From Verrucomicrobiota bacterium (GTDB lineage Bacteria > Verrucomicrobiota > Verrucomicrobiia > Verrucomicrobiales > Akkermansiaceae), in the NCBI GenBank assembly GCA_004294095.1, contig RDZR01000026.1, forward strand, positions 16,411 to 80,410: a stretch of 64,000 nucleotides of DNA. Reading direction: 5' to 3'. The notes beneath the pieces were generated by a model. The model was not told where the DNA came from, searched no databases, and worked only from the letters and a program-made list of their open reading frames with translations. Position 1 is the stretch's first letter, and every line of letters starts with the position of its first letter. Below, in pieces: positions 3,347 through 34,562 of this stretch. The translations under genes were made by a program, and so were the position numbers.

Positions 3347-4450
3347 ATGGAATTACTCAGGCATTCACCGCTCGAAGCTTCTCACCTCGCCCTCGGAGCA
3401 AAATTGACGAACTTCGCCGGTTGGCAAATGCCGATTCAATACACGTCGATCATGGATGAGCATGCGGCGGTGCGAAATGCCGTGGGTGTGTTCGATATTT
3501 CACATATGGGCCAATTCATCGTCAGCGGCAGCGGGGCCTGCGCATGGCTCGATGGCATGCTGACCAATTCCGTGGCAAGCTTGGCCGTTGGCGAAGGGCA
3601 ATACACGCTGTTGCTCAATGAAAGGGGAGGGGTGATTGACGATTTGATTTTGTATCGTTGGTTAGAAGACACCTATTTTCTCGTCGTCAATGCTTCCAAA
3701 ATCGATGAGGATTTCACGTGGCTTTCGCAGCATCTAGCAGCCGGCGTTTTACTGCGCAACGAGAGTGATGCGTGGGCTGGGCTCGCCGTGCAAGGGCCGC
3801 TCGCCGCAAGTCTCTATCAGAAAATTTATCCGCACGAATTACTTCCACCGCGCAATGGAATTCACGCCCTAGCTTCTGGAGAAATCGTCTGCCGCACTGG
3901 ATATACAGGCGAGGATGGATTTGAAATTTTCATCCCGGTGGGACATGCCGCAAGCGTCTGGCAAGCCATGCTCGATGGCGGTGCGAAACCATGCGCGTTG
4001 GGTGCGCGCGATACCTTGCGGCTCGAAATGGGCTACCCACTTAACGGCAATGATCTCTCACCAGACCGCACTCCGCTCGAAGCGGGTCTCGGGTTTTTCT
4101 GCGATCTAACCAAAAATGATTTCATCGGGCGCGAAGTGCTTTTACAGCAAAAAAGTGAGGGCCTTAGCGTTCGTCTAACAGCCATTGAAACCATCGAAAA
4201 AGGACCACCTCCTCGCGCTCACTATCCGGTGCTTGCTTCAGATGGAACGCAGCTCGGCGAGTTATCCAGCGGCGTGCTTTCGCCAACCTTGATGGCTGGC
4301 ATTGGCATGGCCTATTTGCCAACCGCGTTCTCAAAAATTGGCACGTCTTTGTTCGTTGAAGTCCGCGGAAAAAAAATCGCAGCCAAGGTTGTCAAAAAGC
4401 CATTTCTCACATCTCATCGTTCTCAATCCACTACCCCAACTCCACTCTAA
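3347..4450 (+). CDS. gcvT: Glycine cleavage system aminomethyltransferase T protein
   Basis: '[33 protein letters not shown]', '[14 protein letters not shown]' and '[18 protein letters not shown]' are classic GcvT motifs. I chose the ATG at 3347 over the upstream GTG at 3317. Confidence 0.92.
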
Positions 4451-15648: not shown

Positions 15649-16740
15649 CTACGCACGCTCCTGAAGACCATAATGGTAGATGGTGATACCTTCAGAGATG
15701 AAAAGGTCTCGCTCATGCTGGATCATCTGAAGACGCCCCTCGGCACTACCATGCTGGTTTGCCCTATCATGGAAATCGACATGAAGTTTATCCAAATCTC
15801 TTTTTACATTACCGTGGTGAGGATTCTTGATTTTTCCACTGTGATACCGTTTTGTAAGCATGAGGATCACACAGGATAGCGAAAGGGCTCCGGCGCTCAG
15901 CTCAAACAAGATCCACTTTTGTGTCAAATTACCACCCCGCATCAATTCGGATACGGATTCTTCCGGTGCTATTGCCAGCTTTTGTTCGGCCGTTAGTCCG
16001 TTGCGGACAGTCATAACTCCAAGTCCAAGAATGAAATTGCCGAAAGCAAAAGCAAATGGGATCAAGATCAATACGAGCAGCAGTTTCTTGAACCGATTGC
16101 TGGTTACAATATGCAACAAAACCTCCCCAACCATTCCGGCGATTAACAGAATCGCTCCCATGCCGTAGGTAAGAAACGGGTGATTGGTAAAAAGTGGTGA
16201 GTGAGTACCCTCGAAATGGGCCTTCATCGTTAACGGCGATAAAATCACCAGAATCGCGAGTGCCACAGCAGGAATGACCAGCATTATCCAATCTCCCGGG
16301 GTGAATGGCTTCTTTTCTACGTCGTCATTCAAAAACTGCGGCGTATTTGCAAGCTCCTTTGAGACGCGGAGCAATTCCTTCCTTGTTGCCAAACAGTTGC
16401 TCTTTTTGACTTCAGTGATTCTTGTAAGCGGCCCGACTAGCGGTGCGTAGTGCCGGTCAAAGACGGAACTCACAATCGCTTTGACGTTTTCAACGCTTCC
16501 GCTCTTATTCACGACCTGTTGCTGGATCGCGGCATACGGCATCATCGGCTTTTCATAAGTCTGATAGAAACGCTCGAAAGTATCTTTGTCGGGGATGCTT
16601 GAAGGCAAATAATCGACTTCGATTTGATCATCATCCGTATCAACAGCATCAGATGCACCACCCACAGAGTTTGTGACTTCACTGAGATCTTCAGTATTGA
16701 GATCGGCTTCTTTGTTCGCGTTGTTTTTCTGAGTGCTCAT
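15649..16740 (-). CDS. Hypothetical 4-TM membrane protein (acidic N-terminal cytoplasmic domain, C-terminal helical tail)
   Basis: A 363-aa ATG-initiated ORF with four clear hydrophobic helices between about aa 150 and 290. I recognise no family. Confidence 0.6.
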   Translation of the reverse strand: MSTQKNNANKEADLNTEDLSEVTNSVGGASDAVDTDDDQIEVDYLPSSIPDKDTFERFYQTYEKPMMPYAAIQQQVVNKSGSVENVKAIVSSVFDRHYAPLVGPLTRITEVKKSNCLATRKELLRVSKELANTPQFLNDDVEKKPFTPGDWIMLVIPAVALAILVILSPLTMKAHFEGTHSPLFTNHPFLTYGMGAILLIAGMVGEVLLHIVTSNRFKKLLLVLILIPFAFAFGNFILGLGVMTVRNGLTAEQKLAIAPEESVSELMRGGNLTQKWILFELSAGALSLSCVILMLTKRYHSGKIKNPHHGNVKRDLDKLHVDFHDRANQHGSAEGRLQMIQHERDLFISEGITIYHYGLQERA

Positions 16741-16819
16741 GGTGTTGGTGTCTGGTTTCTGTAGTTAGTGCGTTCGATGATCGGTCTTGCTTGTGACGAA
16801 AGTTGTTTATGGAGATGGA

Positions 16820-16850
16820 GATTCTGTTGCCAGGCTCACAGTGCCCCGAT
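16820..16850 (-). repeat. Copy 1 of the conserved leader/promoter motif (minus-strand sense ATCGGGGCAC-N3-GAGCCTGGCAACAGAATC)
   Basis: The 18-nt core GATTCTGTTGCCAGGCTC is identical in all three copies, and GTGCCCCGAT is conserved. It lies 80 nt upstream of the ATG at 16740. Confidence 0.8.
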
Positions 16851-16873
16851 ACTTAGTAAGTCCCGTTGAACGG

Positions 16874-16891
16874 CTAGCCAAAGTCTCCCAT
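16874..16891 (-). CDS. Mini-ORF MGDFG* with its own Shine-Dalgarno (AAAGGAG at 16900-16906)
   Basis: Minus-strand sequence ATG GGA GAC TTT GGC TAG. Its paralog at 17981-18004 keeps the peptide while all four third positions differ. It overlaps the 3' end of the 108-aa ORF 16874-17200. Confidence 0.45.
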   Translation of the reverse strand: MGDFG

Positions 16892-17200
16892 AGTATTTTC
16901 TCCTTTCATAAGTATTGCATGACAGAATTGGGAACCACCGTGACGGAGTTCGTCTCGGGATTGCGAACCCGAAGTAACGAGCGGTTTGTTTCCAACTAGT
17001 TTCACGTCGAAGTGCTCGACGTGCCCATCCATGTGGTGGATCTCGGCGAACTCATCGGGCTTGGCTATGCAGAGCTTGACGCCGCTCCAATAAGCCTTTG
17101 CTGCTGGATTGCTACGAGTCATGGTGATGCTGGCTTTCATGGCAGAGGCTGACTGGATCTTCTTGCGAGAGTAGCTTTTGATTTTCACTCTGGTGCTCAA
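16874..17200 (-). CDS. Hypothetical 108-aa ORF (TTG start); reality uncertain
   Basis: An ORF sits at the position expected downstream of repeat copy 2, 76 nt from the motif. There is no family match and no convincing SD. Its last 5 codons coincide with the conserved mini-ORF. Confidence 0.35.
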   Translation of the reverse strand: MSTRVKIKSYSRKKIQSASAMKASITMTRSNPAAKAYWSGVKLCIAKPDEFAEIHHMDGHVEHFDVKLVGNKPLVTSGSQSRDELRHGGSQFCHAILMKGENTMGDFG

Positions 17201-17275
17201 TGTTTGATGTGTGACTGACTACCCCCCTTCCGTGACGACCTCTGTTTTGGTTCACTCCTCTTTATCGAGATTTTG

Positions 17276-17307
17276 GATTCTGTTGCCAGGCTCCTATGCG
17301 CCCCGAT
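17276..17307 (-). repeat. Copy 2 of the conserved leader/promoter motif
   Basis: The same 18-nt core is followed by CTATGCGCCCCGAT. It lies 76 nt upstream of the TTG at 17200. Confidence 0.8.
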
Positions 17308-17398
17308 GCTGGATTAGTTGATTCGTTATTAATTCTTTATTCTGTATTACCTCCGTTCTTATGATCACTGCGTGACGCTATCCGAGTTTTCCGTGACA

Positions 17399-17869
17399 TC
17401 ATTCGTTTATATGCTTCCATTCCGGTATCGTTAGGAAATGCTCAAATGCGATTGGCCACCCTCCTGATGCACATATCGCATAGTGATAATCTCGTATTTT
17501 CCCATCACGCACGATTGTCTCAGGAGTGTCATCGAGAAATTCGATGCATTCTTCTTGCTTCGAAACCGTTATTCCCAGAGCCGACAAGTTGATCATGCCA
17601 CATTGACAGCAGATTTGAGGTTTGTGCGGCGGAGTTGTATATTCATGCGCCGTGTGGTAATACACGTTAGCAAGTGAAGGCAGTGCGTGAATGCAATCTG
17701 ATGTTCTCGCAGACACATGCAACAAGTCTTTCTTCACTTGACGTAATGCAATGTCTAGTGATGCGCCTTCTATCAAACAGATGAAGTATTTATGCCAAGT
17801 AGGCCGCTCTGGCAGCGTGTAGGAAAATGACACGATCCATTTTTGGTTTCTTTCTGTATGGTTTTTCAT
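17399..17869 (-). CDS. Hypothetical 156-aa protein, paralog of 18089-18550
   Basis: Alignable blocks shared with the 153-aa neighbour: 'FICLIEGASLDIAL' vs 'FLSCLVQGTSLREAL', 'ALPSLANVYYH' vs 'SLPSGAKVYLH', and 'YAICASGG..IAFEHFLTIPE' vs 'YAIRNSDGRIIRLEPFLILPD'. Confidence 0.65.
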   Translation of the reverse strand: MKNHTERNQKWIVSFSYTLPERPTWHKYFICLIEGASLDIALRQVKKDLLHVSARTSDCIHALPSLANVYYHTAHEYTTPPHKPQICCQCGMINLSALGITVSKQEECIEFLDDTPETIVRDGKIRDYHYAICASGGWPIAFEHFLTIPEWKHINE

Positions 17870-17926
17870 ATAATTCTAGCGTAATAGAATATCGTTCATT
17901 CGAACGGATGATATTTGGTAAATTGA

Positions 17927-17958
17927 GATTCTGTTGCCAGGCTCTCTAGTGCCCCGAT
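17927..17958 (-). repeat. Copy 3 of the conserved leader/promoter motif
   Basis: The same 18-nt core is followed by TCTAGTGCCCCGAT. It lies 58 nt upstream of the ATG at 17869. Confidence 0.8.
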
Positions 17959-17980
17959 TCTTAATCAGTGTTTCAGCGTA

Positions 17981-18004
17981 TTAGTCGCCTCCGAAATCGC
18001 CCAT
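17981..18004 (-). CDS. Mini-ORF MGDFGGD* with a strong Shine-Dalgarno (AAAGGAGGA at 18012-18020)
   Basis: Minus-strand sequence ATG GGC GAT TTC GGA GGC GAC TAA, with a 7-nt spacer after the SD. It lies in a 220-bp stretch otherwise lacking any ORF. Confidence 0.45.
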   Translation of the reverse strand: MGDFGGD

Positions 18005-18053
18005 ATTGATGTCCTCCTTTCGTGTGTATTGCGTGACCTCTGGCGAGTTGATC

Positions 18054-18070
18054 GTGACAGCAAGTGTCAC
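18054..18070. promoter_or_regulatory. Inverted repeat GTGACA-N5-TGTCAC just after the stop of 18089-18550
   Basis: Perfect 6-bp arms that share the GTGAC core recurring in all intergenic regions of this sub-cluster. Confidence 0.4.
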
Positions 18071-18088
18071 GTTCCAAATATCCCCATC

Positions 18089-18550
18089 CTAACGAAGGTC
18101 CGGAAGTATGAGGAATGGTTCTAGGCGAATGATTCGACCATCGCTGTTTCGGATCGCGTAGGGATTATCCCGTTTCAACCCATCCGGGATGAGTGGTTCG
18201 GGACAAGTGAAAATCGGAATGATGTCTTCCTCGCAATCGGGAATATCGATGCCGATTGTCTTCATGTCCATAGTGCCACTCATGAATAGGCATGATGCAT
18301 CCGTCGTCATTGCTCCAATCTCGACTGTCTGATGGAGATACACTTTCGCTCCCGAAGGAAGTGAATGCTCATTTTCTTTATCCTCGATATACATCTTTCG
18401 GATCGTAGTCTTGAGCTCTAAGAGGGCTTCACGCAGAGAAGTCCCTTGAACAAGGCACGATAGGAACGTGTTTACCTTGGCATTGTCGGGAGCAACGAGT
18501 GCAAGTTGCGCTAGCCAAATTCTCGACGATTTCGTGGATGGTTTCTTCAT
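18089..18550 (-). CDS. Hypothetical 153-aa protein, paralog of 17399-17869
   Basis: See the paralog alignment blocks above. ATG start at 18550. Confidence 0.65.
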   Translation of the reverse strand: MKKPSTKSSRIWLAQLALVAPDNAKVNTFLSCLVQGTSLREALLELKTTIRKMYIEDKENEHSLPSGAKVYLHQTVEIGAMTTDASCLFMSGTMDMKTIGIDIPDCEEDIIPIFTCPEPLIPDGLKRDNPYAIRNSDGRIIRLEPFLILPDLR

Positions 18551-18582
18551 ACCTATAGTGCATGACAGGAACTCGTTGGCTT

Positions 18583-18599
18583 GTGACGATTCTCGTCAC
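18583..18599. promoter_or_regulatory. Perfect palindrome GTGACGA-TTC-TCGTCAC, 33 nt upstream of the ATG at 18550
   Basis: 7-bp perfect arms. The left arm is part of GCTTGTGACGA, which is also present at 16788-16798 upstream of 15649-16740. Confidence 0.5.
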
Positions 18600-20863: not shown

Positions 20864-21457
20864 TCAAAGCACGGAATCAGGCACGGGAACTACCGCTTTT
20901 TTCCAAAAATCCATGGTCTTGGGCTCCAACAAGCCCTCTTCGTGGTCCCCAAACTCCAGGAGAGCATCAAGAAATGAAAGCGCGAGTTCGTGCCTTCCAA
21001 GGAGAGTCATTGACCGCAACATTCGGGTAATCCGCAGCTGATTGTGGTTACCCTTGCGAAGCCACGGATGGTAGTGAAGGGGCCAATTGTCCGATTCGTC
21101 ATATTGGCCAATCACCCTGAAGAGGACTTCTTTCACTTCGGGGCGGGCGGGATCGAGGCCAGGCATAAACCCAAAAAAATTCAGCATCTTGGAAATGGAT
21201 TTTTCGAAATTGTCCTGAAGCTTCGAATAACCAGCATGAGCTGGATCTAGGAAAATTTCCCTAATCTCGTCCGTAAGCACTGGAGCGTGGGGATTGAATC
21301 GACTGCTCACATAGAGCGGGAAAAGCCATTGGATGTAGTCGTGAGTTTCTTCAAGCCAAAGCTTATCCTTGGACAAAATCTCCTCAAGACTCCGCCCCAT
21401 GTGATCAGTGCCTGTGCCGAGGTAGAAATCGAGCAGCAACGTGTCTTCTTCGTTCAT
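20864..21457 (-). CDS. Opioid-growth-factor-receptor (OGFr_N)-like domain protein
   Basis: 'HDYIQWLFPLYVSSRFNPHAPVLTDEIREIF...MLNFFGF' matches the OGFr conserved-region signature (H.(Y/F)IQWLFPL...LT..EI..F). Confidence 0.75.
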   Translation of the reverse strand: MNEEDTLLLDFYLGTGTDHMGRSLEEILSKDKLWLEETHDYIQWLFPLYVSSRFNPHAPVLTDEIREIFLDPAHAGYSKLQDNFEKSISKMLNFFGFMPGLDPARPEVKEVLFRVIGQYDESDNWPLHYHPWLRKGNHNQLRITRMLRSMTLLGRHELALSFLDALLEFGDHEEGLLEPKTMDFWKKAVVPVPDSVL

Positions 21458-21990
21458 CTTAACTCATCCTCTCTGGCGAGAACTAATTCCATTTTGGCAT
21501 GGAGATCCGAAATCGAATCCATTCGGTCCAAAAACATTTTTCCGTCCAAGTGGTCGAGTTCGTGGAGGAAAACCCTTGCGGCGAGGTCGCGCAATTCACT
21601 TTCGATCAGCTCGCCATAACGATTCTGCCAACGGGCCAGAATTTTGGCAGGCCGAGTGATCAATGCTTTGTATCCGGGCATGCTGTAACAGGATTCCCAC
21701 GCCCGGTCGAGCTCTTCGGACTCCGAGAGAACTTCCGGATTGATAACCTCCATGGGCGGAACATCGGGAGCATTAGGGAAAAGTTCTCCTTTTCGCGACT
21801 GCATCACAAACAACCGGACGGATTCATTGACTTGAGGAGCGGCCAAACCGACGCCATTCACTCCGCCCATTGTTGCGAGGAGGTCATTGATAAGAATTTG
21901 AATCCGAGGATCTTCCGGATTGGGCACTTCGGGCGCACGTTCGCGAAGGATTGGATTTCCTATCAGAGCTACTTGGAGGATACGGGACAT
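21454..21990 (-). CDS. def: Peptide deformylase paralog
   Basis: All three PDF motifs are present: 'GVGLAAPQV', 'ESCYSMPG' (an EGCLS variant) and 'HELDHLDG'. There is an ATGA overlap with the OGFr-like gene. Confidence 0.85.
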   Translation of the reverse strand: MSRILQVALIGNPILRERAPEVPNPEDPRIQILINDLLATMGGVNGVGLAAPQVNESVRLFVMQSRKGELFPNAPDVPPMEVINPEVLSESEELDRAWESCYSMPGYKALITRPAKILARWQNRYGELIESELRDLAARVFLHELDHLDGKMFLDRMDSISDLHAKMELVLAREDELR

Positions 21991-21994
21991 TGGC

Positions 21995-23401
21995 TTAATA
22001 AGTGTTCCAGACAATGGATCCCTTTTCTACTGCATAGCAGAACTTGAAGTTACGTATCTTGATATTAGTGAATAGGTGGTCTGCCAACTCCACCTGCCCT
22101 GCCTCTCGGAGTTCGGCGATTGCTCTAGATTTATGTTGTTTGATCGTCTCGTGTGAACGGCCGCCCACGGTATTTCTGCGCACGTCGCCCAATGCCTTCC
22201 GAAGGGCTGCGATCTCGGTTTCGAGTATCGAGCGCAAGCGTCGATTGGCTGAGGCGAGCTGCGCCTCTTTTCGTTGAATTTCCCTTCGATACACGGCATG
22301 CGTTTCCTTAGCCGTGTCATCCGTATTCAGATTTTCCTGGATTGCTCGGTTGTTGTCGTAATCCCTACGATTCCCCCCATTTTCCCTTTGGAATGGATCC
22401 TCGTCGTCATCTTCGCCGTCCTCATCATCTTCGGCGTCTGACATGTCACCATCACCAGGGTTTTGATGAAGGAAGCCGACAGCCTCCTGGCCAATATCAG
22501 CAGCTTCACCACCAATCTGGTGTGCGGCAAACTCTTCATCTGGATGACGCAGCAACCACGCGATCGTTTCAAAATTCGGATTGTCCGGCAGGGAAATCAC
22601 TTCTCCACATCCGAAACTGATCTGCCATAGCGTGACTGTATCATCTGCCCATTGCGCGGGCGCAAGTTTGCTCCCATTCTTCTTCAACATGTCTAACTCT
22701 ATTTCCATTTCGTAGTCGCCTAGGCGTTTCGAATCGGAACAAGTAGAGGGACCTTTGGGGTACTTTTTGTTAAACGCTTTGACAAAATCCATGGCCTTTT
22801 TGGCCCGATTGAACTCTGGCGAGTTTCTTTTGATCCATTGTCCGTCAATCAACTCGTGAACAGCGATCTGGCAAGGCTCCTTCAAGCGACGGAAACGGTT
22901 GCGCCCGATACGACTCTGACGCAGGTACAGACAAACCTGGCGCAAGCGTTTGGCCAGCAGCTCCGTGTTGGATAGATCCGGCTTCTCCCTCACCATCAAT
23001 CGTTCCGGTGGAAAAGTCGCCGATGCACGAGAATGGAGCTCAAATTGGAGGAGTCGCGCCCGGTGCTCTCCGTAAGTGTCGTCCACGGTCGTGTCGCTTT
23101 CCACTCCGGTCAGAATCGAAACCAACCAAGCCGCCTTCCATTGACTAATGATGCCAAGAAGCGCGAGACCGTCGATGGGGTCTTCTGCCGCATCATTGCT
23201 AAAACTGATGTCGAGCGAAATCAGGTCGTAGGGAATCTCCGCTGCGCGACGGATCGCCTCCCGGCACTTCTGGATAGTGTCCGGGGCTTCAATGGTGCAG
23301 GGAAGCTTTAGATCATTGAAAATCTCCAAGAAGTTGCTTTTGATGGCTTGAGCCCATTTGGGTTCGTCTTCGACAATGAGGATGCGGAGAGGTTGTGACA
23401 T
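21995..23401 (-). CDS. Orphan response-regulator receiver protein with a non-canonical output region (REC-B)
   Basis: 'LIVEDEP' ... 'DLISLDISF' ... 'VSILTGV' ... 'MVREKPD'. This is followed by 'WQISFGCGEVISLPDNPNFETIAWLLRHPDEEF', a poly-acidic 'DAEDDEDGEDDDED' stretch, a coiled segment and 'ETIKQHKSRAIAELRE'. Confidence 0.8.
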   Translation of the reverse strand: MSQPLRILIVEDEPKWAQAIKSNFLEIFNDLKLPCTIEAPDTIQKCREAIRRAAEIPYDLISLDISFSNDAAEDPIDGLALLGIISQWKAAWLVSILTGVESDTTVDDTYGEHRARLLQFELHSRASATFPPERLMVREKPDLSNTELLAKRLRQVCLYLRQSRIGRNRFRRLKEPCQIAVHELIDGQWIKRNSPEFNRAKKAMDFVKAFNKKYPKGPSTCSDSKRLGDYEMEIELDMLKKNGSKLAPAQWADDTVTLWQISFGCGEVISLPDNPNFETIAWLLRHPDEEFAAHQIGGEAADIGQEAVGFLHQNPGDGDMSDAEDDEDGEDDDEDPFQRENGGNRRDYDNNRAIQENLNTDDTAKETHAVYRREIQRKEAQLASANRRLRSILETEIAALRKALGDVRRNTVGGRSHETIKQHKSRAIAELREAGQVELADHLFTNIKIRNFKFCYAVEKGSIVWNTY

Positions 23402-23405
23402 AGTC

Positions 23406-24107
23406 TTATGGAGTGAGGATGATCTGGCGAAGGAGCGATTCTCCTTCTACAAACCATTGCGTGACGGGGTCTGTATCCGGGGCGAGAAGCCACTCACGGA
23501 TGCGATTCGCCAACTCATGATCGGCCAGTGGGCAGTATCGCTCCCAGCGGAGTGGCAGTAAGTTGCTCGCAAGCTTCAAAATTCGACTCCGGTTCTCTTC
23601 GGTATGCTCGCCCTTGCAGACTAGCTGGAGAATTTCCTTCCTGAGCGCGACCTGTTCATCAGTGAGTTGGGAATTGAGCCATTCCGTGAACTGATGCGGG
23701 CGCGCCTCGTTGCAGGCTTCGAGAATACTGAATAGGCCTACCTCCACGGAAACTGGGAGGCAATACGGCGAGGGTGTGGCCCCGCATCCTCGGTCGCCAT
23801 GGTGGCAATCGAGAAGCAGCCACTTCAAGCCGGGGTCGCTTTTGATGTCTCTGCCACCCTTCGCGCCATAGAGCCGCCAGAACGCGTCATGCCGCCATCG
23901 CGTCTGCGCTGAAGACTCTGTGGCGGTAGCAACTTGAAAAACATGCCGACAGCCGATCAGTGGTGATTCGAAAGGGGTGGATAGCCCCCACTTCTGCCTG
24001 ATCAGCCGCTCGTCAGGAATCGGCAATGCGTCAAAAACCTGCGCCAGTACGCTCGCCACCGGGCCGGAGCCAAGGATGATTCGTTGTCGATGCGGGCTTG
24101 CGGGCAT
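23406..24107 (-). CDS. Hypothetical 'GSGP' protein, partner B (paralog of 20042-20800)
   Basis: See partner A. 233 aa, with a 4-nt gap to REC-B and a 3-nt gap to the 875-aa gene. Confidence 0.6.
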   Translation of the reverse strand: MPASPHRQRIILGSGPVASVLAQVFDALPIPDERLIRQKWGLSTPFESPLIGCRHVFQVATATESSAQTRWRHDAFWRLYGAKGGRDIKSDPGLKWLLLDCHHGDRGCGATPSPYCLPVSVEVGLFSILEACNEARPHQFTEWLNSQLTDEQVALRKEILQLVCKGEHTEENRSRILKLASNLLPLRWERYCPLADHELANRIREWLLAPDTDPVTQWFVEGESLLRQIILTP

Positions 24108-24110
24108 GAC

Positions 24111-26738
24111 TTAGAAAAGCCGCTTAAACTCTGATCCCGTCAGACACTCATCCCACTTGCTGGCACTTTTACGAAGAAAACGTTCTGCAAGATAGCTGGT
24201 CGCAAGCCTATCGACTGGAGTCAACGAAACGCCACGCATGTGATTGATCGCTTCGACATTGTCTTTCATTGCGCAAGCCCGGAACAAAGAATTGAATGGC
24301 TCCTGAACTACTTGAATATAGCCACTACTAAACCATTCATTTGCCGATGCAGGAAGATCGTTCGGTCGATACAGAGCAATACGAGCTACCCAATCGGCCA
24401 GATAATGGATCTGCTTGGGATCAACCCGGTTTGGGGCAAAAAGCTGATTGCGGACACGCTGCAACATTTGTGGCCCTCGTCGGAAATTGTTGATAATATC
24501 CTCAAAATCGTTCAAAACCGCGCCTCTTGCAGTTCTCACATCTGGTCTTCCATCCAGAACCCCCCGATCTTTCAAGATTCCTCGCACAATCCTGTGAACG
24601 CCATCGCAATCTAAACTAGTATAGTTCCAATTGCCGGCTCGCTCTTTAAACTCTATACCGTAGGCAGCGTGCCAAGTGCTTCGCGTTGCAAAGTCGGCTA
24701 GCTTTTGCTGCCGTGTGGCGGCATGAACATAAACAGCATCAACAGATATATTAATCCATGGGTGCTCAAACAACAGCATCTCAAGGTTCTGCCTTAGCAG
24801 CGTGTGGTAGATGTTGTCCAACGCATTTTCATCGAAGAGAATCGCGCTGTCGATCACCCTGTCGCGGCTGAACCTAAGCAACTCGGGATCAAGAATGGAA
24901 AAGGCTGCAATTCGACTTCCGCTACCCCTCGCAGCATCAATTGCAAGCTGGAAACCCGCGACTTCGTCCTCCGAACCGGGAACTGGTTTTTTAGGAAAGT
25001 AACAAATACTATTGAGTCGATTCTCTCCACCAGGCCGGATTTGGTCAGGTCCGTAGTCCGAGACACCCCATTTTCTGGGCGCATGATTGACGGACCGATG
25101 GAATGCTTCCATGGCATCTTTGTTCTCATGTGACACAACAATGCCGCCCACGGAAAAGCCCGGATCCCTTTGATTGAACGGGTCTCCAGACTCGTCGATG
25201 TAGATCTCGATAAACCGCTTTGGACGTCCTGTATTTTCGTTCTCGCAAATCGCCCGATCCAGCCGAAACGAGGCCAAGGCTTTTCGCGTGTCCATAATCT
25301 TGCAAGCATGATCGACAGCCGAGGAAAAATCCGACCTAATCTCGCCCACCATCTCGCTCCATGAACTACATAGTCCAGCGAGAATCGGCTTACGGAAGGT
25401 GGTGATGATATTTCCATAATCACGGAAAGGGGCAATCAATTCGCTGCGGTGGGTAGATGAAAAAACGATGATTGGCAGCGTTGGATCAATCAGTGCGACC
25501 AATCGTGGCAATAGCGTTTCGTCGGTGTTGGCCGCGTTAAGTTCGGCCAACAATGCCTGTTTTCCCTCTATCGTCACCCAAGGAAGATTCCTAGTTGAGT
25601 TCAAGAGAGTCCGGCCTAAGTCCTCAAGTTGAGATTGGAACTCCCTACCTAACTCCAAGCGAAGATCCAACAGAAGAACGAAATTCGAGTCGGCATGATG
25701 TGGTTCGCCAGTCAAATCAGACGGGTTGAGTGGTTTTTCGCTGGCTATCACAGCCGTGAGACGTTCGCAGAGGTTGCCCATTTTTGCGGGAAACTCTCGT
25801 GAGGGGATAGTGATGAATTCCGAGCTCCCCTCCCTGATCAGTCCGAAGGCAAACTGAACAAACCAGCTCCAAAGATCGGCCATATCGTCAATCATGACAA
25901 TCGAGGAAAACGCTTGCTGTTGTTGCTCAGAGATCCACCACTGAGAATTAGCATCGTTGTCATCTGCGAGCCTATTCGTGTTGGATTTGACTCCGCAAGC
26001 CGTAGCCAACTCCAAGAGGTAAGGAGCGATGGGGAAGTGCGTATTGAGTTGATTGACAAATTCAGAAATACACCCCGGAGCGGCTTGAAAGGGCAGTAAG
26101 AAAGCCCCAAGAACATTGCTCAAGGCGTGATGCTGCTCGCGGTTGGAGGTGAGTTCGCTCCAGATGGTGGATTTAAGGAGGCCACAGAGATGGGGCGTGT
26201 CTTTGAACATACTGCGCTTATCTAATTTGGAATCAGAAAGCCACTTGCAGATCGCTTCCAAGCCGGGAGCATTCAAGACTGCGGCACGGGGGACGAGGGG
26301 CTGGCCCAAGACGTTGCGGGCACCAAGGATCGTCTGCAGCGCACGCGCCGTGCCGCTGGCGGGGCACAGCTCCTGAGGGTCGATGACAGCGATAGCAGCT
26401 TTAGCATCAGGAAACTTCACTTTCCAGGCGGCAAGCCAAGAGGTGGCGGTGAAGTGATCGCGGAAGTTTATCTTCGTGAGGCTGGGAACATCCGTTTCAA
26501 AGACTCCATCCGGCGGATGGTTGCCTATGATCAGGATTTGCTTATACGCATCAGTGAGGTCAATTTCTCGTCCACAAATGGTTGACTTGCCAGTTTCGAG
26601 AGCCTGTATCCAGAGGGCAGAGAAGGTAATCGTGTCGTTGTAGTCGAGAAGAGAGATAGCTGGATTCGCTGTCTTCCCGGGGCCGTGTAGGATCCGCCCG
26701 AGAGCCTCGAAGAATGGTGATGTCTCGATGTTCTTCAT
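24111..26738 (-). CDS. 875-aa multidomain protein: unknown N-terminal domain + receiver-like domain + DUF3800-like C-terminal domain
   Basis: The central region carries 'VMIDDMAD' ... 'VLLLDLRLE' ... 'IIVFSSTH' ... 'TTFRKP', the receiver D-D/D/S-T/K-P pattern. The C-terminal region starts with 'IEIYIDESGDPF' and contains 'QIHYLADWVA', like DUF3800 (from memory). Confidence 0.6.
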   Translation of the reverse strand: MKNIETSPFFEALGRILHGPGKTANPAISLLDYNDTITFSALWIQALETGKSTICGREIDLTDAYKQILIIGNHPPDGVFETDVPSLTKINFRDHFTATSWLAAWKVKFPDAKAAIAVIDPQELCPASGTARALQTILGARNVLGQPLVPRAAVLNAPGLEAICKWLSDSKLDKRSMFKDTPHLCGLLKSTIWSELTSNREQHHALSNVLGAFLLPFQAAPGCISEFVNQLNTHFPIAPYLLELATACGVKSNTNRLADDNDANSQWWISEQQQQAFSSIVMIDDMADLWSWFVQFAFGLIREGSSEFITIPSREFPAKMGNLCERLTAVIASEKPLNPSDLTGEPHHADSNFVLLLDLRLELGREFQSQLEDLGRTLLNSTRNLPWVTIEGKQALLAELNAANTDETLLPRLVALIDPTLPIIVFSSTHRSELIAPFRDYGNIITTFRKPILAGLCSSWSEMVGEIRSDFSSAVDHACKIMDTRKALASFRLDRAICENENTGRPKRFIEIYIDESGDPFNQRDPGFSVGGIVVSHENKDAMEAFHRSVNHAPRKWGVSDYGPDQIRPGGENRLNSICYFPKKPVPGSEDEVAGFQLAIDAARGSGSRIAAFSILDPELLRFSRDRVIDSAILFDENALDNIYHTLLRQNLEMLLFEHPWINISVDAVYVHAATRQQKLADFATRSTWHAAYGIEFKERAGNWNYTSLDCDGVHRIVRGILKDRGVLDGRPDVRTARGAVLNDFEDIINNFRRGPQMLQRVRNQLFAPNRVDPKQIHYLADWVARIALYRPNDLPASANEWFSSGYIQVVQEPFNSLFRACAMKDNVEAINHMRGVSLTPVDRLATSYLAERFLRKSASKWDECLTGSEFKRLF

Positions 26739-27466
26739 GGCCGAAGTGTATTAAGGAAATCCAGTTTCTCGGAGAGCGCCTTGGATGCGGATACCAGATT
26801 TTGCCCGCTCTTTGACGCTTTTACGACCTCCGCCGCCAATTTGGTGAGATCGTCCGGTGGTTTAACAATCGTGATGCGGTTGCATTCTTCTGTCTCGATT
26901 CCAGACGCCTCCATCAAAAGCCTTGCAGCCATAACTACCTCGTTGAGCCATGCGATGTCGGTTGATGCGCATGCACCTGCCTCGTCCCGAAGTGTCCGGA
27001 GCACTTGAAGCTCTTGATTCACAACTTGTTTTAGGAAATCCGCGTCGCATCGAGGAGGCAGAACGCCTGCATAAAATCTGACACGTAAAGACGGATAGCC
27101 TTCCAGTGGTCCTCCTTTACCAGTTGCGGCTAAACACCACTCGCTTCTTGTTGCCAATTTTGTGTCGCCCCCAGAGTAAAGAATAACGTAAGGCTCGGAA
27201 CCCGCCGGGCAATTCCTCAGGCACTTTATAAACCCTTGAATCTGGACAGAGTGCGAGTACTCGTTCTCCCAGTTCGTTAGAGTAAGGTCAGGATGTTCAC
27301 CTCGCTCATGCTCGTGTGTATGAGCGAAGACAAGATCAACTGGATCGAATGTTGGTGGGAAACTGCTGTCATGCTCGTGTGCAAAAACAATCTCAGTCAG
27401 ACCACCAGTGGGAAATGCATTCTTCCACGCTTCAACGCGACAGGTATCAATAATGTAGATCTTCAT
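26735..27466 (-). CDS. Hypothetical 243-aa protein (possible degenerate flavodoxin/receiver-like N-terminus)
   Basis: An ATG ORF with an ATGA overlap onto the 875-aa gene. The strand pattern 'KIYIIDT', 'DLVFAH', 'YVILYSGG' is suggestive only, and there is no K-P. Confidence 0.5.
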   Translation of the reverse strand: MKIYIIDTCRVEAWKNAFPTGGLTEIVFAHEHDSSFPPTFDPVDLVFAHTHEHERGEHPDLTLTNWENEYSHSVQIQGFIKCLRNCPAGSEPYVILYSGGDTKLATRSEWCLAATGKGGPLEGYPSLRVRFYAGVLPPRCDADFLKQVVNQELQVLRTLRDEAGACASTDIAWLNEVVMAARLLMEASGIETEECNRITIVKPPDDLTKLAAEVVKASKSGQNLVSASKALSEKLDFLNTLRP

Positions 27467-27470
27467 GTTT

Positions 27471-30335
27471 CTATTTTTTATCGAATGTAATTGTCTGTTC
27501 GTCTCTGTTCACCGTGAATTTGAAAGCTAGCTCTAAATGCCCATACAAAGATATTGGGGCCGTAGTCTCAAATTCGGTGATTTTGCAGAATGCATCCAGC
27601 AGGACTGATGCTTCTTCGCACTTATTGCCGCCCACTTTCTCCGAAAGCGATTTTTTCAGCTTCAGTGTTACACTGAAGCTCTTACTGTTAAAGTTACCTT
27701 CATAATTCAGTATGATCTTTTCTAGCAACGATTGACTTCGCAAACTGTGCGCGAGCTCGGCAAGAACGATGGAAGGGTCTTTGTCGCTGAAAAACGCACT
27801 CGATGGAAAATCGGCAGGCTCATCAAACTCTTCATTCCCAGATACAACAATAATCGGGATTTCCGTATTCATCCCACTCTCAGTCATCTTTACTGTGGCC
27901 GCCTGCAGCAGCCTATGTAGTCGTCCTGAGGTAAACCGAACTCCAACTCCCTTGTTAGCTCGCGTCTTGCAGAAAACAGCTTTCAGATTGGCAAAGGGGC
28001 CTTTTGTGCGCGGGCAGGCTTGTGCAAAATTTGGATCGCAATCGACATTTCTCTTCAAGCAGTCTGATTGGACATCGTTTAGCTGAGACAATTGCGCGAT
28101 CATCCAAACAAAAAGAAAATGATCAAGGGTGCTCTGCCCGAAGTAATCGCAGACAACTTTCGATGATGACTTTTTTCCATTTCTCAGAAATGCCAAAGCT
28201 GCGGGAAGCCATGATTCATCAATTCCGCTTTTCAGATCGCCAGAATAACCAAGGATTCGGAACATAGCCCGAAGACGATCCAAGTGATGATTGCAAAACC
28301 AAGCTTCGTGACCACTCACACCTCCAGGAACGTCTTCGAAAAATCTGCCCTCCTCAAACCACAGCGAGATTCGAAGTGCTGAATCGAGAATAGCGACTTT
28401 CTTCTCCTTTTCCCAAATAGATCGCAAGCGTGAGTTCATAGCTTTGACAGCAGCCATCTCTTTGATGGGATAAGAAGGAAGTCCCAGAACCCATGATTTC
28501 CATTCGCGTCCGAGAACTCCGCCGGTGCGCTGTGTTGAATCGCCCAGCCAATAATCCTGGGGAGTAGACTCAGTTTTTTCCCGGCCAAACAAATATCGGT
28601 CAACGATTTCCAGCTTGGAGCTGACATCCCTATACCTGGGGAAATTGGACCAATCAGCTTCCAAACAGGCTTGGATCCAGGGACGAACAATCGTTATTCT
28701 CACAGATTCGTCAGTTAGCAGAACAAGGATGTCGTCGTGAAGGGACTTGAGGGTTGAGTAAAAGACATCAAAGGAAGTAGTTTTGGGATCAAATGGCTTC
28801 GGAAACTTGAGCGCGAGGCAAAACAATGGCAGACTGCCAAAATAGATGGGAAGCATGAAGTAACTCGGATAGTCCGTCTCATCTCCCCAGCACCCCCGTT
28901 TAAGCTTTTTGTTCTTACTGTCTGAGGAATTCAGTCCAAAGACTTCTAATTCAAGTTCTTCAAGAGCAATATCGACAGCGGTTAACTGGTAGTCCGAAGC
29001 CCATTGCGTAGCAAAGGCCTGAACGCTGCTGGATCGGGCGAAGCATGTCTGAAAAACGCCATTTGCACTTGGATAATGAGTTTGCGCACGACTGGGATGC
29101 TCAATCAGCATGGGGTGCGTGGAGATAGTGGTATCAAGCCCTCGGAACAACGGCACGATCCGGGCAAACACAAGGCAAGGGTCGAAAGGAAGAATAACCA
29201 ATGCCTCTCTGCTCCCGGACGTAGATCCTTTTTGGTTTTTCGGATCATCGAACAATGAAATCATCATTGAGATTCGTTCGGAGTTCGAAACCACCGATTC
29301 GTTGATCGAACCTTCTATTACTGAAAAAAATGCATCGTTTAGAATTCCCGCCAAGGGATCGCGAGAGACAAGCACATGGCAGTCCATGGCTCCCCATCCC
29401 GTCTCATGATGTAGGGACAATTGCCGAATGTAACTGACGTCTTTGTTCTCCCCATCCTTCCGAACAAGCATTCCATTTGTTCGCCCCTCCTTTAGTACCT
29501 TATCGGCTTGTTCGCGGGTGAATCTAAGCCCGGATGGCATACCCTCAACGCCGCCAAATAGCTCGGTGGTTGTGTACGCCGCCTGGGTAGATTTAAAGAA
29601 CCATCCATCCTTTCGATTTGCGGGTGGCGGCTCTTCCCAAATTCCTCGTCTAAGTAGCCTATCTGCGATCTTCTCCGTCTTGAGCCATAAGGTTTTACCG
29701 TCCTCCGGAGGCCGTCCATGTTCTAAATAAATGGCACCCACTTTGCTAAGATTACTAACAACTGAGTCCCATGTAGAATAGACATCGACCAGAAGAATTG
29801 AAGGGCGAAGATCCAGAATAGCGTTAGTCAAGCATTGCTGGTCAAAGTGAAACCAGGTGTGAGCCATGATCAGAAGAGCCGTTGTCCCCCAAGCGTCCTC
29901 ATTATCTTCCTTATCGAATAGACTTCTCAATGCATGATCGGGGCATGGATCACATACACTGAATTGAGCTTTAGACTTGGCAGTTTTGGCGCTACGATTC
30001 GCCTGCTCAATTGCAGCTGGAGAACAATCCAGCCCGTAGAACTCCAATTTTGTTTTTGATGCGAATTTCGTGAGGTGATTCAGGAAACTTCCCTCTCCAC
30101 ATCCGTAATCGACGACCCGCGTGATATGAGGCAGGGCGGGATCACTGCCACATCTAGATAAAACTCGACACCATATCTGCTCTGCAGATTGTTTTTGCTT
30201 GTCTTCGAAATCGGGGAAAAGCTTGCTGAACATCTTCTGTGCATAAAGCATCTTCCCATAGTCATGGGGTTCGTCCCTTTCAAGTGTTAGAGTATCACAC
30301 ATAATATTATTTAAATAGATGTAGGGATGCTTCAC
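27471..30335 (-). CDS. 954-aa protein: N-terminal class-I SAM-dependent methyltransferase fused to ~750 aa of unknown function
   Basis: 'VVDYGCGEGSFLNHL' (motif I) is followed by 'LEFYGLDCSPAAIEQA' (motif II acidic residue). I recognise nothing in the remainder. The GTG at 30335 overlaps the upstream gene by 29 nt. The alternative ATG at 30302 leaves a 4-nt gap. Confidence 0.65.
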   Translation of the reverse strand: MKHPYIYLNNIMCDTLTLERDEPHDYGKMLYAQKMFSKLFPDFEDKQKQSAEQIWCRVLSRCGSDPALPHITRVVDYGCGEGSFLNHLTKFASKTKLEFYGLDCSPAAIEQANRSAKTAKSKAQFSVCDPCPDHALRSLFDKEDNEDAWGTTALLIMAHTWFHFDQQCLTNAILDLRPSILLVDVYSTWDSVVSNLSKVGAIYLEHGRPPEDGKTLWLKTEKIADRLLRRGIWEEPPPANRKDGWFFKSTQAAYTTTELFGGVEGMPSGLRFTREQADKVLKEGRTNGMLVRKDGENKDVSYIRQLSLHHETGWGAMDCHVLVSRDPLAGILNDAFFSVIEGSINESVVSNSERISMMISLFDDPKNQKGSTSGSREALVILPFDPCLVFARIVPLFRGLDTTISTHPMLIEHPSRAQTHYPSANGVFQTCFARSSSVQAFATQWASDYQLTAVDIALEELELEVFGLNSSDSKNKKLKRGCWGDETDYPSYFMLPIYFGSLPLFCLALKFPKPFDPKTTSFDVFYSTLKSLHDDILVLLTDESVRITIVRPWIQACLEADWSNFPRYRDVSSKLEIVDRYLFGREKTESTPQDYWLGDSTQRTGGVLGREWKSWVLGLPSYPIKEMAAVKAMNSRLRSIWEKEKKVAILDSALRISLWFEEGRFFEDVPGGVSGHEAWFCNHHLDRLRAMFRILGYSGDLKSGIDESWLPAALAFLRNGKKSSSKVVCDYFGQSTLDHFLFVWMIAQLSQLNDVQSDCLKRNVDCDPNFAQACPRTKGPFANLKAVFCKTRANKGVGVRFTSGRLHRLLQAATVKMTESGMNTEIPIIVVSGNEEFDEPADFPSSAFFSDKDPSIVLAELAHSLRSQSLLEKIILNYEGNFNSKSFSVTLKLKKSLSEKVGGNKCEEASVLLDAFCKITEFETTAPISLYGHLELAFKFTVNRDEQTITFDKK

Positions 30336-31170
30336 ATTCCGCTATAAGAGTTGCCTCACTTTCGACTCCGGCAGAAGGGAATCCAAGATTCAAAATGGAC
30401 GTGGTCCTGGCCCCAAAAATTTCAACGGCGCGCATTGATCCCAATTCAACGTAATGCCTACAAACAGATGGAAAAAGGCTAACAAAGGCAGTGGCGCCTG
30501 TTCGAGTGGTTGCCTCGTATATCATTTCTGCAACTTCTCCTGTGCAATCCGCTGACTTTCCCGTGCAATACGCTTCCTGCAATGCTCCGGAAAGATCCGG
30601 AAGTAAACAGACGACATTCCCATTTGACTCCTCTATCCGTGCAGATGGAGGAAGCTTGCCGTCCGCAATCAACTGTGCCATGCGATTTTTGTGACGATTT
30701 CGTAAGTTCATTTCACCATAAAACGGTGCGGTCGATACGGCGTTCGATACAGGAGGCTTCGGCTCTAGCAACGCAACGCTGTCAGAGTGTAAAGCGAGCG
30801 TTTCAGAATAGACCTGTGGTAACCCTATTTGGCCCGTATAGAAGCTGGACCGATTCACGTCTTTCGGGACGTATTGCCAATCGTTTACCGCAATCATCAC
30901 ATGCTTTTGTGGGGTCTCAAGTTCCGCCATCAGTTTCAACGCGAGTTTCCAAGTAAGAATGGGAAAGTGACCATAAGCCTCGAAAAATGGTTCTATAACC
31001 GGGGTTATGGGCTCACCTTGAACGCAGGAAACGAGGCAACCTTTTGACTTGTCATACATCAGCAGAAAATGCCCTGCCTGGAAAACAACGGATTGCGCAT
31101 CCCCTACAGCCGCGATCGTCAAATCGCGAAGAGCTTCGTAGTCTTTAGGAAAATGGTGCGTAAGATTCAT
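30307..31170 (-). CDS. Hypothetical 287-aa protein translationally coupled to the cysteine desulfurase
   Basis: An ATG ORF with an ATGA overlap onto the desulfurase stop. It contains a Cys pair, 'CTGKSADCTGE'. No known family and no PP-loop SGGxDS. Confidence 0.55.
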   Translation of the reverse strand: MNLTHHFPKDYEALRDLTIAAVGDAQSVVFQAGHFLLMYDKSKGCLVSCVQGEPITPVIEPFFEAYGHFPILTWKLALKLMAELETPQKHVMIAVNDWQYVPKDVNRSSFYTGQIGLPQVYSETLALHSDSVALLEPKPPVSNAVSTAPFYGEMNLRNRHKNRMAQLIADGKLPPSARIEESNGNVVCLLPDLSGALQEAYCTGKSADCTGEVAEMIYEATTRTGATAFVSLFPSVCRHYVELGSMRAVEIFGARTTSILNLGFPSAGVESEATLIAECEASLHLFK

Positions 31171-32968: not shown

Positions 32969-32999
32969 TTTCAGAACTGACTGTATCGAACAACATCAA

Positions 33000-33122
33000 C
33001 TACTTATCTATTACCTTGGAATCTTCATGGAGGTATTTCACGAAGCGGATCACAGAGACAAGACTTGCTACTCCACTGATAATGGCGATCAACGGAAAGA
33101 GATAGATTGAGATTTGGAGCAT
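33000..33122 (-). CDS. 40-aa single-TM peptide downstream of the symporter (possible symporter small accessory protein)
   Basis: Minus-strand ATG at 33122 to TAG at 33000 gives MLQISIYLFPLIAIISGVASLVSVIRFVKYLHEDSKVIDK. It begins 12 nt after the symporter stop. It is absent from the ORF track, which lists no ORF shorter than 60 aa. Confidence 0.4.
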   Translation of the reverse strand: MLQISIYLFPLIAIISGVASLVSVIRFVKYLHEDSKVIDK

Positions 33123-33134
33123 TGATGAGTTTGG

Positions 33135-34535: not shown

Positions 34536-34562
34536 TGGAGAACAGGCTATGTGTTGATTATT

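Follow-up and report, generated by a model that had tools for sequence, protein, structure and literature searches.

What does an operon gain from a short intergenic sequence that recurs between its genes and carries a ribosome-binding site, a handful of codons and a small RNA structure? The question is raised by a 64,000-nucleotide (nt) stretch of DNA from a Verrucomicrobiota bacterium of the Akkermansiaceae (assembly GCA_004294095.1, contig RDZR01000026.1, positions 16,411 to 80,410), here called the window, in which alignment of three intergenic regions revealed three copies of a cassette of about 150 nt. Coordinates are counted from the first nucleotide of the window, and all of its features described below lie on the minus strand. 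A first-pass annotation of this DNA had reported two mini-open reading frames (mini-ORFs) driven by Shine-Dalgarno (SD) sequences, and had proposed a translated leader or a signalling pentapeptide under purifying selection. It overlooked the main point: the "32-nt motif" that it noted beyond the mini-ORFs is a pseudoknot of the PK2 type found in transfer-messenger RNA (tmRNA, SsrA).

The genes of this region are arranged in the order response-regulator-like gene, gene A, cassette 1, gene B, cassette 2, 108-amino-acid (aa) ORF, membrane protein gene and OmpA-domain lipoprotein gene, and cassette 3 is overlapped by the 108-aa ORF. Both SD-driven mini-ORFs were confirmed where they had been reported. 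Mini-ORF copy 1, in cassette 3 (16891-16874), reads ATG GGA GAC TTT GGC TAG, encodes MGDFG and lies 8 nt downstream of AAAGGAG (16906-16900). Copy 2, in cassette 1 (18004-17981), reads ATG GGC GAT TTC GGA GGC GAC TAA, encodes MGDFGGD and lies 8 nt downstream of AAAGGAGG (18020-18013), an SD sequence that is conserved across cassettes. Codons 2-5 of the two copies differ at four third positions, a synonymous-only pattern whose probability by chance, by our own arithmetic and for a pair picked post hoc, is about 1/495 x 1/9, or about 2e-4. Reading of the minus strand also bore out the similarity reported upstream of the SD, GTCA(C/T)GCAATAC, and the 1-nt difference in the length from SD to ATG. 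Cassette 2 has no start codon, as had been noted; its ACGGAGG (17356-17350) is followed by ATA in place of ATG. The frame of copy 2 is indeed in phase with the TAG of gene A (18091-18089), with no stop in between. The repeated motif has an 18-nt core, GAGCCTGGCAACAGAATC, that occurs in three exact copies, on the minus strand only (16820-16837, 17276-17293 and 17927-17944), compared with 0.1 expected from shuffles.

A single H-type pseudoknot fits all copies of this motif, with stem 1 (S1) formed by GGGC and GCCU and stem 2 (S2) by (G/A)(G/A)GA and UC(U/C)C. The 5' strand of S2 directly precedes the 3' strand of S1, and the 10-nt loop, GGCAACAGAA, is invariant. In cassette 1 the pseudoknot occupies 17925-17956 (S1, GGGC 17954-17951 and GCCU 17942-17939; S2, GAGA 17946-17943 and UCUC 17928-17925; loop 3, GGCAACAGAA, 17938-17929), in cassette 2 it occupies 17305-17274, and in cassette 3 it occupies 16818-16848 (S1, GGGC 16846-16843 and GCCU 16835-16832; S2, GUGA 16839-16836 and UCUC 16821-16818; loop 3, 16831-16822). 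In a 14-sequence alignment of cassettes from this and related loci, 92.9% of cells were consistent with the pseudoknot pairing, compared with 27-46% when the partners were slid. Covariation was above that of all 500 shuffles, and the result held when the phage copies described below were added. Compensatory changes included G-C to A-U in S1 of one related locus (L001) and A-U to G-C in S2. At this modest alignment depth, the covariation alone is only suggestive.

The identity of the pseudoknot was indicated by comparison with tmRNA. All cassettes gave partial matches to the last ~40 positions of RF01849 (alpha_tmRNA), at 14-25 bits against a gathering score of 50 (search in E-value mode), and the 3'-end consensus of that family, GGCGgGGUUCGGAGgcACCuGGCAACAGAAacCucC, contains both stems and the loop of the cassettes. 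A scan of the IMG/VR database for CGGGGC-N5-9-GCCYGGCAACAGAA yielded 54 loci, and a variant paired by U/A yielded more than 120. ARAGORN placed the motif of the IMG/VR loci within standard or permuted tmRNA genes in 68 cases, directly after the tag stop codon. This is the position by which PK2 is defined; S2 of the motif covaries freely among the tmRNA copies. A covariance model, R1, was then built from the PK2 of 36 ARAGORN-verified tmRNAs only and run without filters over the whole window. Its matches were exactly the three cassettes, cassette 2 with 37.2 bits (E ~2e-7), cassette 1 with 34.3 bits (E ~1e-6) and cassette 3 with 31.4 bits (E ~8e-6), these E-values being rough; the next match had 8.7 bits. 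As judged from sequence and pairing, the cassette pseudoknot is indistinguishable from tmRNA PK2.

The pseudoknot closes a cassette of defined order. From the 5' end, the cassette consists of a small hairpin ending in box 1 (YGTCACG), 15 nt, box 2 (GTCAYGCA), the SD sequence GAAAGGAGG, 7-8 nt, and AUG with a few codons; these are followed by a stop codon with a hairpin, ACUGAYURAG, CGGGGC, 5-6 nt and GAGCCUGGCAACAGAAUC. In cassette 1 the small hairpin is CGTGACA-CTTGC-TGTCACG (18053-18071) and contains box 1, GTCACG (18058-18053), and box 2, GTCACGCA (18030-18037), lies 21 nt after box 1. The closing purine-pyrimidine pair of this hairpin covaries across cassettes, being A-U in nine, G-U in three and G-C in two. 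Cassette 2, which follows gene B, spans 17274-17397, with box 1 at 17397-17392 and box 2 at 17376-17369. Box 1 (GTCACG) and box 2 (GTCATGCA) of cassette 3 lie at 16939-16944 and 16916-16923, respectively. A putative hairpin of the form CCGU-NNN-ACGG or AUAGC-loop-GCUAU stands at the mini-ORF stop in most cassettes, with modest support, as shapes vary and helix 1 is 70% paired; in cassette 3 it is CCGU-UCA-ACGG (16863-16873), immediately 3' of the stop codon. The same hairpin occupies the same position in four related loci, L001 (where a U-G pair replaces C-G), L007, L032 and L037. A second hairpin, which includes UGA and UAA and has the form CUGAUU-AAG-AAUCGG, adjoins the pseudoknot. In cassette 1 this hairpin resembles helix 5 of tmRNA (17954-17968) and places an out-of-frame UGA and UAA 8 and 4 nt before the pseudoknot. 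About half of the cassettes have stops in all three frames, and most of the rest in two, at distances of 4-25 nt before the pseudoknot. A weak terminator-like hairpin, CGTTC-GAAT-GAACG followed by ATATTCTATT (17883-17906), lies 18 nt after pseudoknot 1; its stem covaries in L007 and L001, and in phage copies this place is taken by a true terminator.

The cassette shares with tmRNA the succession of a short ORF, a putative hairpin carrying stop codons and an H-type pseudoknot, whose stems pair GGGG(C/U) with (G/A)CCU and include a variable stem 2, and whose loop is GGCAACAGAA. The distance from start to pseudoknot is also alike. For tmRNAs that carry this PK2, the distances to it are 41-110 nt (median 52) from the resume codon and 2-48 nt (median 12) from the tag stop; in the cassettes the AUG lies 35-52 nt and the mini-ORF stop 23-29 nt before the pseudoknot, and the former range matches the 41-56 nt from resume codon to PK2 in short-tag tmRNAs. 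The peptide start x-N-D-(F/W) resembles tags beginning A-N-D-(N)-F/Y: among 61 tmRNA tags, 23 start A-N-D and 16 have an aromatic residue next, and half of the mini-ORFs start M-N-D-(F/W). In other respects the two differ. The cassette has no tRNA-like domain, PK1, PK3, PK4 or CCA end, and it is embedded three times in the intergenic regions of an operon rather than forming a stable stand-alone RNA. Its ORF begins with AUG behind a strong SD, not with an Ala resume codon, and has 5-8 codons without the ...LAA degron; mini-ORF peptides end in G, D, E, N or K, whereas tmRNA tags end in a hydrophobic ...(L/A)AA degron. ARAGORN detected no tRNA or tmRNA in the window, and an Rfam 15 scan of the window gave zero matches at gathering score. 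No PK1 was found upstream of the mini-ORF, where only 7-8 nt separate SD and AUG and where alignment folding predicts no pseudoknot. On these predicted features the cassette is not a tmRNA, because it lacks a tRNA-like domain and PK1, starts at an AUG behind an SD and has no ...LAA end. As a separate observation, PK4 of E. coli tmRNA (ssrA, L039 128-490; tmRNA nt ~270-310) contains GCUGGCAAGCGAAUGUAAAGACUGACUAAGCAU, which is like the cassette loop CCUGGCAACAGAAU and linker ACUGACUGAGCAU in opposite order; this likeness may reflect shared ancestry of tmRNA pseudoknots, or chance.

Conservation of the cassette was assessed in nine metagenomic loci with the same operon (L001, L007, L017, L018, L021, L032, L035, L037 and L038). 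Loci were obtained through homologues of gene B (two proteins) and of the 363-aa membrane protein (six), with four contigs from a DNA pattern scan of metagenomes; L028 and L029 belong to the window's strain. Gene B and the 363-aa protein have few homologues, so that phylogenetic depth is limited; a scan of genome contigs for the cassette pattern gave seven matches, a chance number, none of them with a cassette. The shared operon comprises peptide deformylase (Def), an OGFr_N protein, a response-regulator-like protein, small variable genes, a 36x-aa membrane protein and OmpA, and the flanking membrane protein is 63-70% identical across the cassette-bearing lineages. Together with the three cassettes of the window, the 17 of the related loci make 20 distinct cassettes. 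Conservation is patchy: the boxes, SD, AUG, codons 2-5, hairpin and pseudoknot are kept and the spacers are not, which, as a pattern read from sequence, is that expected of a functional element. In L018, three cassettes follow one another in tandem in a stretch of 0.5 kb, uninterrupted by genes and with nothing coding upstream. What lies between two cassettes differs among relatives: gene B in the window, L007 and L001, an unrelated 196-207-aa protein in L021 (2828-3451) and L038 (3034-3624), and nothing in L035 and L037; the cassettes may be recombination anchors for the swapping of small genes.

The expectation that homologous loci would retain the mini-ORF was borne out at the level of its signals. 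An AUG, 2-8 further codons and a stop stand 5-8 nt behind a purine-rich SD-like box in 17 of the 20 cassettes; 14 of these boxes are AAAGGAGG or differ from it by one base, and three are more degenerate. The encoded peptides follow the consensus M-[G/N]-D-[F/W/M]-G loosely. Besides MGDFGGD and MGDFG of the window, they are MNDGG and MNDFGGN (L007), MGDDWRSK (L001), MGDWG (L017), MGDWGEE and MNDWGE (L021), MNH, MGDGD and MPD (L018), MGDMGD and MGDMG (L032), MGDMGGDP (L035), MNDFGGD (L037), and MNDWGEE and MNDGGSK (L038). Among the 11 copies alignable over codons 2-5, Asp3 (GAC/GAT) and Gly5 (GGA/GGC) showed synonymous variation only, codon 2 alternated between GGA and AAC, and codon 4 alternated between TTY, TGG and ATG, which are unrelated codons. 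Overall, the ratio of nonsynonymous to synonymous variation (pN/pS) over these codons was ~0.67. The peptide as a whole is only loosely conserved, which weakens the initial proposal of purifying selection. Length and C-terminus vary, and C-terminal residues are altered through compensated frameshifts, one of which, between L001 and L021, keeps the stop position. The glycine codons generate GGAG runs, and RNA-level selection may therefore shape the mini-ORF. In L021, the gene A homologue (3526-4248) has no stop at the corresponding place and reads through the cassette to end ...MGDWGEE; the frames of L007 do not match. The shared phase may be a coincidence or may reflect occasional read-through.

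Within the window, an SD-like 4-mer lies within 20 nt upstream of only 7 of 52 candidate gene starts, a rough count in which starts were taken from the longest ORFs, and the cassette SD stands out because of this. Genes A and B and the membrane gene have no such 4-mer. The host therefore seems to initiate translation largely without SD sequences. Its placement near Luteolibacter, within the Verrucomicrobiota, rests on relatives of its GcvT.

The same structure was found in phages. More than 30 IMG/VR phage loci carry a stop-loop hairpin, C(Y)GAnU-AAG-AnUCGG, fused to the same PK2-type pseudoknot and have no tmRNA by ARAGORN; an Rfam scan of 16 phage loci with this mRNA-type element gave no family at gathering score. 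The inner pairs of the phage hairpin covary (GAAU/AUUC, GACU/AGUC, GAGU/ACUC; also CCGAAU/AUUCGG), and cassette 1 of the window differs from one phage copy (L082) by one base in an 18-mer (CUGAUUAAGAUUCGGGGC in L082) that runs across the hairpin and S1. Unlike the cassettes, the phage elements have neither an SD and mini-ORF nor GTCAC boxes. Instead, an ordinary ORF of 30-166 codons, with no common function among loci, ends inside the hairpin, 4-13 nt before the pseudoknot, and an intrinsic terminator follows 12-20 nt after the pseudoknot in several loci. Some phages have two copies 300-730 nt apart. No account of mRNA elements of this kind emerged from a literature search that used the loop sequence and covered tmRNA-like elements; the hairpin with a PK2-type pseudoknot outside tmRNA appears to have no Rfam family, and we found no name or description for it. 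In eight of the phage loci (L040, L047, L059, L071, L082, L087, L092 and L131) a strong intrinsic terminator comes after the pseudoknot, and beyond it lies a conserved TTT(A/C)TGGGTAG or TATGCCTAG-like string. This pseudoknot-terminator block sometimes repeats every ~300 nt around small ORFs and looks like a reusable gene-end cassette of one phage group.

The anatomy of the cassette is well supported, and from it we infer a mechanism. We lean, with somewhat less than even confidence, towards a translated module that resembles the mRNA-like domain of tmRNA and engages ribosomes in cis, the mini-ORF being the translated core of the cassette. Ribosomes would load at the SD and AUG, in an organism otherwise poor in SD sequences, translate a few codons and terminate just upstream of a stop-shielded pseudoknot that is not meant to be unwound. 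By analogy with tmRNA, the pseudoknot would contact uS3 at the mRNA entrance. Cryo-electron microscopy of the E. coli complex showed that tmRNA nucleotides C183-A186 contact the KH2 domain of uS3 and that helix 5 sits on uS3/uS4/uS5 at the mRNA entrance (PMC8363625), and C183-A186 in E. coli ssrA are the CAAA of the loop equivalent to GGCAACAGAA. The cassette may, by the same analogy, engage the ribosome at both ends, with the SD acting at the platform and the hairpin plus pseudoknot at the mRNA entrance. For gene B and the 363-aa membrane gene, both of which lack an SD, it would serve in cis as an insulator or as a leader that engages ribosomes. It might retain ribosomes or pass them on, make the transcript more stable, or do both. 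A role in cis, be it loading, insulating or stabilising, is favoured because a cassette has been retained ahead of the SD-less membrane gene in all related loci. Translation may also decide whether the pseudoknot folds, since three of six minimum-energy cassette folds have the 3' strand of S2 paired with GGAG runs located in the SD or ORF; the alignment fold contained no consistent alternative structure. The peptide itself is probably secondary. In tmRNA, the last codons of the tag ORF influence the recruitment of RNase R (PMC4176180).

Several observations weigh against this reading. Translation of the cassette and its docking on uS3 are drawn from analogy, and demonstrable sequence homology to tmRNA appears confined to the pseudoknot: a hidden Markov model spanning the tmRNA resume codon to PK2 aligned the pseudoknot only and not the mini-ORF, which makes homology of the mini-ORF part a lead rather than a result, and the likeness of M-N-D-F to tmRNA tag starts is suggestive only. 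The uS3 contact was observed with the PK2 of E. coli, which is a diverged and larger version. The mini-ORF is not indispensable: cassettes of the type found after gene B, in the window, L007 and L001, have no usable one, and in L001 this type directly precedes the membrane gene. The glycine codons of the mini-ORF double as GGAG, an SD-like RNA motif. Minimum-energy folds were no stabler than shuffles (z -0.9 to +1.2). The phage context, at the end of an ordinary ORF and before a terminator, fits a role at 3' ends or in termination better than a leader.

That termination or 3'-protection role is the main rival, although on balance we consider it unlikely. The module would then act as RNA only, downstream of an ORF, as an exonuclease barrier, a processing or stability element, or a termination roadblock, and in the same manner in phage mRNAs, tmRNA and this operon; the SD and mini-ORF would be accessory, keeping a ribosome nearby, or the GGAG motifs, of which there are several per cassette, would be protein or anti-SD sites, and the peptide would be irrelevant. 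The phage loci argue for it, as do the location of PK2 near the 3' end of the permuted tmRNA gene model (the last ~40 positions of RF01849), the stops that close most frames so that ribosomes seldom unwind the pseudoknot, the three cassettes without an ORF and the pN/pS of only 0.67. A pure decay barrier, however, needs no start codon, yet the SD-like box, AUG and in-frame stop are kept in 17 of 20 cassettes across lineages in an SD-poor genome, Asp3 and Gly5 vary only synonymously, and residue 4 is filled with bulky hydrophobic residues through unrelated codons. The same peptide-level pattern, the conservation of the first five residues and the synteny of Def and OGFr_N with cassettes in several loci would suit a product that matters, a formyl-Met penta- to octapeptide M-[G/N]-D-[F/W/M]-G serving as a signal, a cofactor or a nascent-peptide sensor in cis, possibly tied to Def and OGFr_N. 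We regard this as quite improbable. Variants such as MPD, MNH, MNDGG, MGDGD and MGDDWRSK, the loss of the ORF in three cassettes, the unconserved length and C-terminus, and the lack of an export, processing or modification gene, of regulatory codon runs and of an alternative terminator all speak against it, and it leaves the invariant pseudoknot unexplained. The signalling pentapeptide of the first-pass annotation accordingly found no support, the set of variants running from MGDFG through MNDFGGN, MGDWGEE and MGDMGD to MNH.

Improbable, too, is an independent transcription unit, in which the GTCAC dyad (boxes 1 and 2) would be a promoter or response-regulator site and the product a tmRNA-like small RNA of ~130 nt acting in trans, for example by drawing off ribosomes, SmpB, RNase R or uS3-directed factors like a decoy or sponge. 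Five dyads with a 21-nt period in 2 kb, two of them 7-8 nt before start codons and without a cassette, two response-regulator-like genes in the operon, the gene-free tandem of L018 and the weak terminator-like hairpin after pseudoknot 1 are in its favour. A promoter scan, however, found no sigma-70-like promoter at the dyads, cassettes 2 and 3 have no terminator, and box 1 is the 3' strand of the small covarying hairpin, which suggests that box 1 is transcribed; the retention of a cassette just upstream of the membrane gene in every locus argues for action in cis. Least probable is the absence of any function, with the cassettes as decaying tandem duplications, as fragments of a tmRNA gene left by island integration, or as the C-terminus of the 108-aa ORF. 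Genes A and B are paralogous, which implies that the region arose by duplication; islands often integrate at ssrA (PMC11915505); and in the window, L007 and L032 the frame of the 108-aa ORF continues into copy 1. Against these stand the patchy, feature-specific conservation and covariation across ten loci, the lack of any tmRNA or tRNA-like part in the window and of an integrase among the cassette neighbours, the fact that the "islands" would be one small gene each, and reading frames upstream of the SD that differ between cassettes. The 108-aa ORF shows no codon-position bias: its orthologous stretches carry 31 substitutions in L007 and 8 in L032, split 7/13/11 and 2/3/3 over codon positions 1/2/3, and it is probably not a conserved protein. 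Its C-terminus had been named as an explanation that would refute the mini-ORF reading of copy 1, and it fails as one. The ORF was ruled out as the cause of copy 1, as it shows no purifying selection and as mini-ORF cassettes also occur without an upstream ORF.

To return to the module engaging ribosomes in cis, its likeness to known regulatory systems is partial. Leader peptides and attenuators (ermCL, the cat-86/cmlA leaders, tnaC and pheL) share with it a short SD-driven ORF upstream of a gene and an RNA structure at or after the stop, and the SD-AUG mini-ORFs, predicted to be translated, lie ~130-150 nt upstream of gene B and the 363-aa gene. The initial proposal of a translated leader is reasonable in that cassettes precede SD-less genes, but a classical attenuator is not supported. 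In the cassettes no mutually exclusive terminator and antiterminator were found, and there are no regulatory codon runs and no arrest motif; the alternatives seen were the GGAG-S2 pairing and a terminator-like hairpin after cassette 1 only. The cassette peptide is poorly conserved beyond five residues, and the downstream structure is a tmRNA-type pseudoknot. STAB-SD, in the 5' untranslated region of Bacillus thuringiensis cry3A, is an mRNA stabiliser with no start codon, ORF or pseudoknot. The cassette resembles it in having a perfect GAAAGGAGG away from a real gene start, which could bind 30S subunits and protect the transcript, and differs in having an AUG at optimal spacing after the SD. 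Recoding pseudoknots, such as those of MuLV read-through and -1 frameshift stimulators (in part from PMC5009743), are likewise H-type, with an A-rich loop 3 and a position a few nt 3' of a stop. The cassettes, in contrast, have no slippery site, most frames are stopped before the pseudoknot, and no extended ORF lies beyond it.

A broader proposition, possible though rather doubtful, is that bacterial and phage mRNAs carry a stand-alone mimic of the mRNA-like domain of tmRNA, made up of an ORF end, a stop-loop hairpin and a PK2 pseudoknot, that docks on uS3 at the mRNA entrance, and that the version described here, having gained its own SD and AUG, is a self-contained ribosome-capture module. 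If so, it would represent a new class of cis-acting ribosome-binding RNA element whose product of 5-8 residues begins like a tmRNA tag, and a possible evolutionary link between tmRNA and ordinary mRNAs. PK2 has so far been regarded as a structural accessory peculiar to tmRNA; here it recurs, together with a stop-codon hairpin, in an operon of an uncultivated Verrucomicrobiota lineage and in dozens of phage genomes. A function of PK2 could then be studied separately from trans-translation, candidates being uS3 docking, control of termination and mRNA protection. For small-ORF discovery the locus counsels caution, as a conserved "micro-peptide" signal can be the by-product of a ribosome-handling RNA element.

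Several other candidates for the cassette were tried and rejected. No self-cleaving ribozyme or known riboswitch was matched in Rfam up to E 10, apart from the partial alpha_tmRNA matches. A sigma-54 or sigma-70 promoter within the 32-nt motif does not fit in spacing or consensus, and the promoter scan was blank there. An integron attC site or gene-cassette array and a miniature inverted-repeat transposable element (MITE) were dismissed, as the cassette is not a long palindrome, has no GTTRRRY core (by eye), is accompanied by no integrase and lies in conserved synteny. Remnants of attachment (att) sites of ssrA islands were ruled out by the absence of an integrase, by conserved synteny, by the several copies per locus and by the lack of a tRNA-like part.

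The five GTCAC dyads, GTCAC[G/A]-N15-GTCA[C/T][G/A]CA, have an exact 21-nt period and lie within 2 kb (16916-18587), at 18587/18566, 18058/18037, 17397/17376, 17236/17215 and 16944/16923; three are in cassettes. Of the other two, GTCACA-N15-GTCATGCA (18559-18587) ends 8 nt before the ATG of gene A, and GTCACG-N15-GTCACACA (17208-17236) ends 7 nt before the TTG of the 108-aa ORF. Nine of the 32 minus-strand GTCAC[AG] sites of the window fall in these 2 kb. The dyads may be candidate sites for the response-regulator-like proteins of the operon, or promoter elements.

Among the neighbouring genes, the response-regulator-like gene (20168-18672) encodes 498 aa. Gene A (18089-18550; 153 aa), upstream of cassette 1, belongs to no Pfam family, and gene B (17399-17869; 156 aa), between cassettes 1 and 2, is a paralogue with 29% identity; an AlphaFold model of gene B had a pLDDT of 42 and was unusable. 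The 108-aa ORF (16874-17200) has a TTG start, matches no family and runs in frame into copy 1. The membrane protein gene (15649-16740; 363 aa) lies downstream of cassette 3. In L007, a CRISPR-DR16 match at 1-29, at a contig end inside a response-regulator-like gene call, scored 26.7 bits against a gathering score of 35 (E 0.007) and is probably due to chance. Farther upstream in the operon of the window are Def, the OGFr_N protein and a second receiver-domain protein. They belong to a long co-directional block (20864-38825) in which PADLOC matched no system; there, the peptide deformylase gene adjoins that of the OGFr_N-domain protein, the two receiver-domain proteins have no known output domains, and the block also holds genes for a 954-aa methyltransferase-domain protein, an 875-aa protein with a weak DUF3800 match and an 821-aa HerA/CedD-like ATPase.

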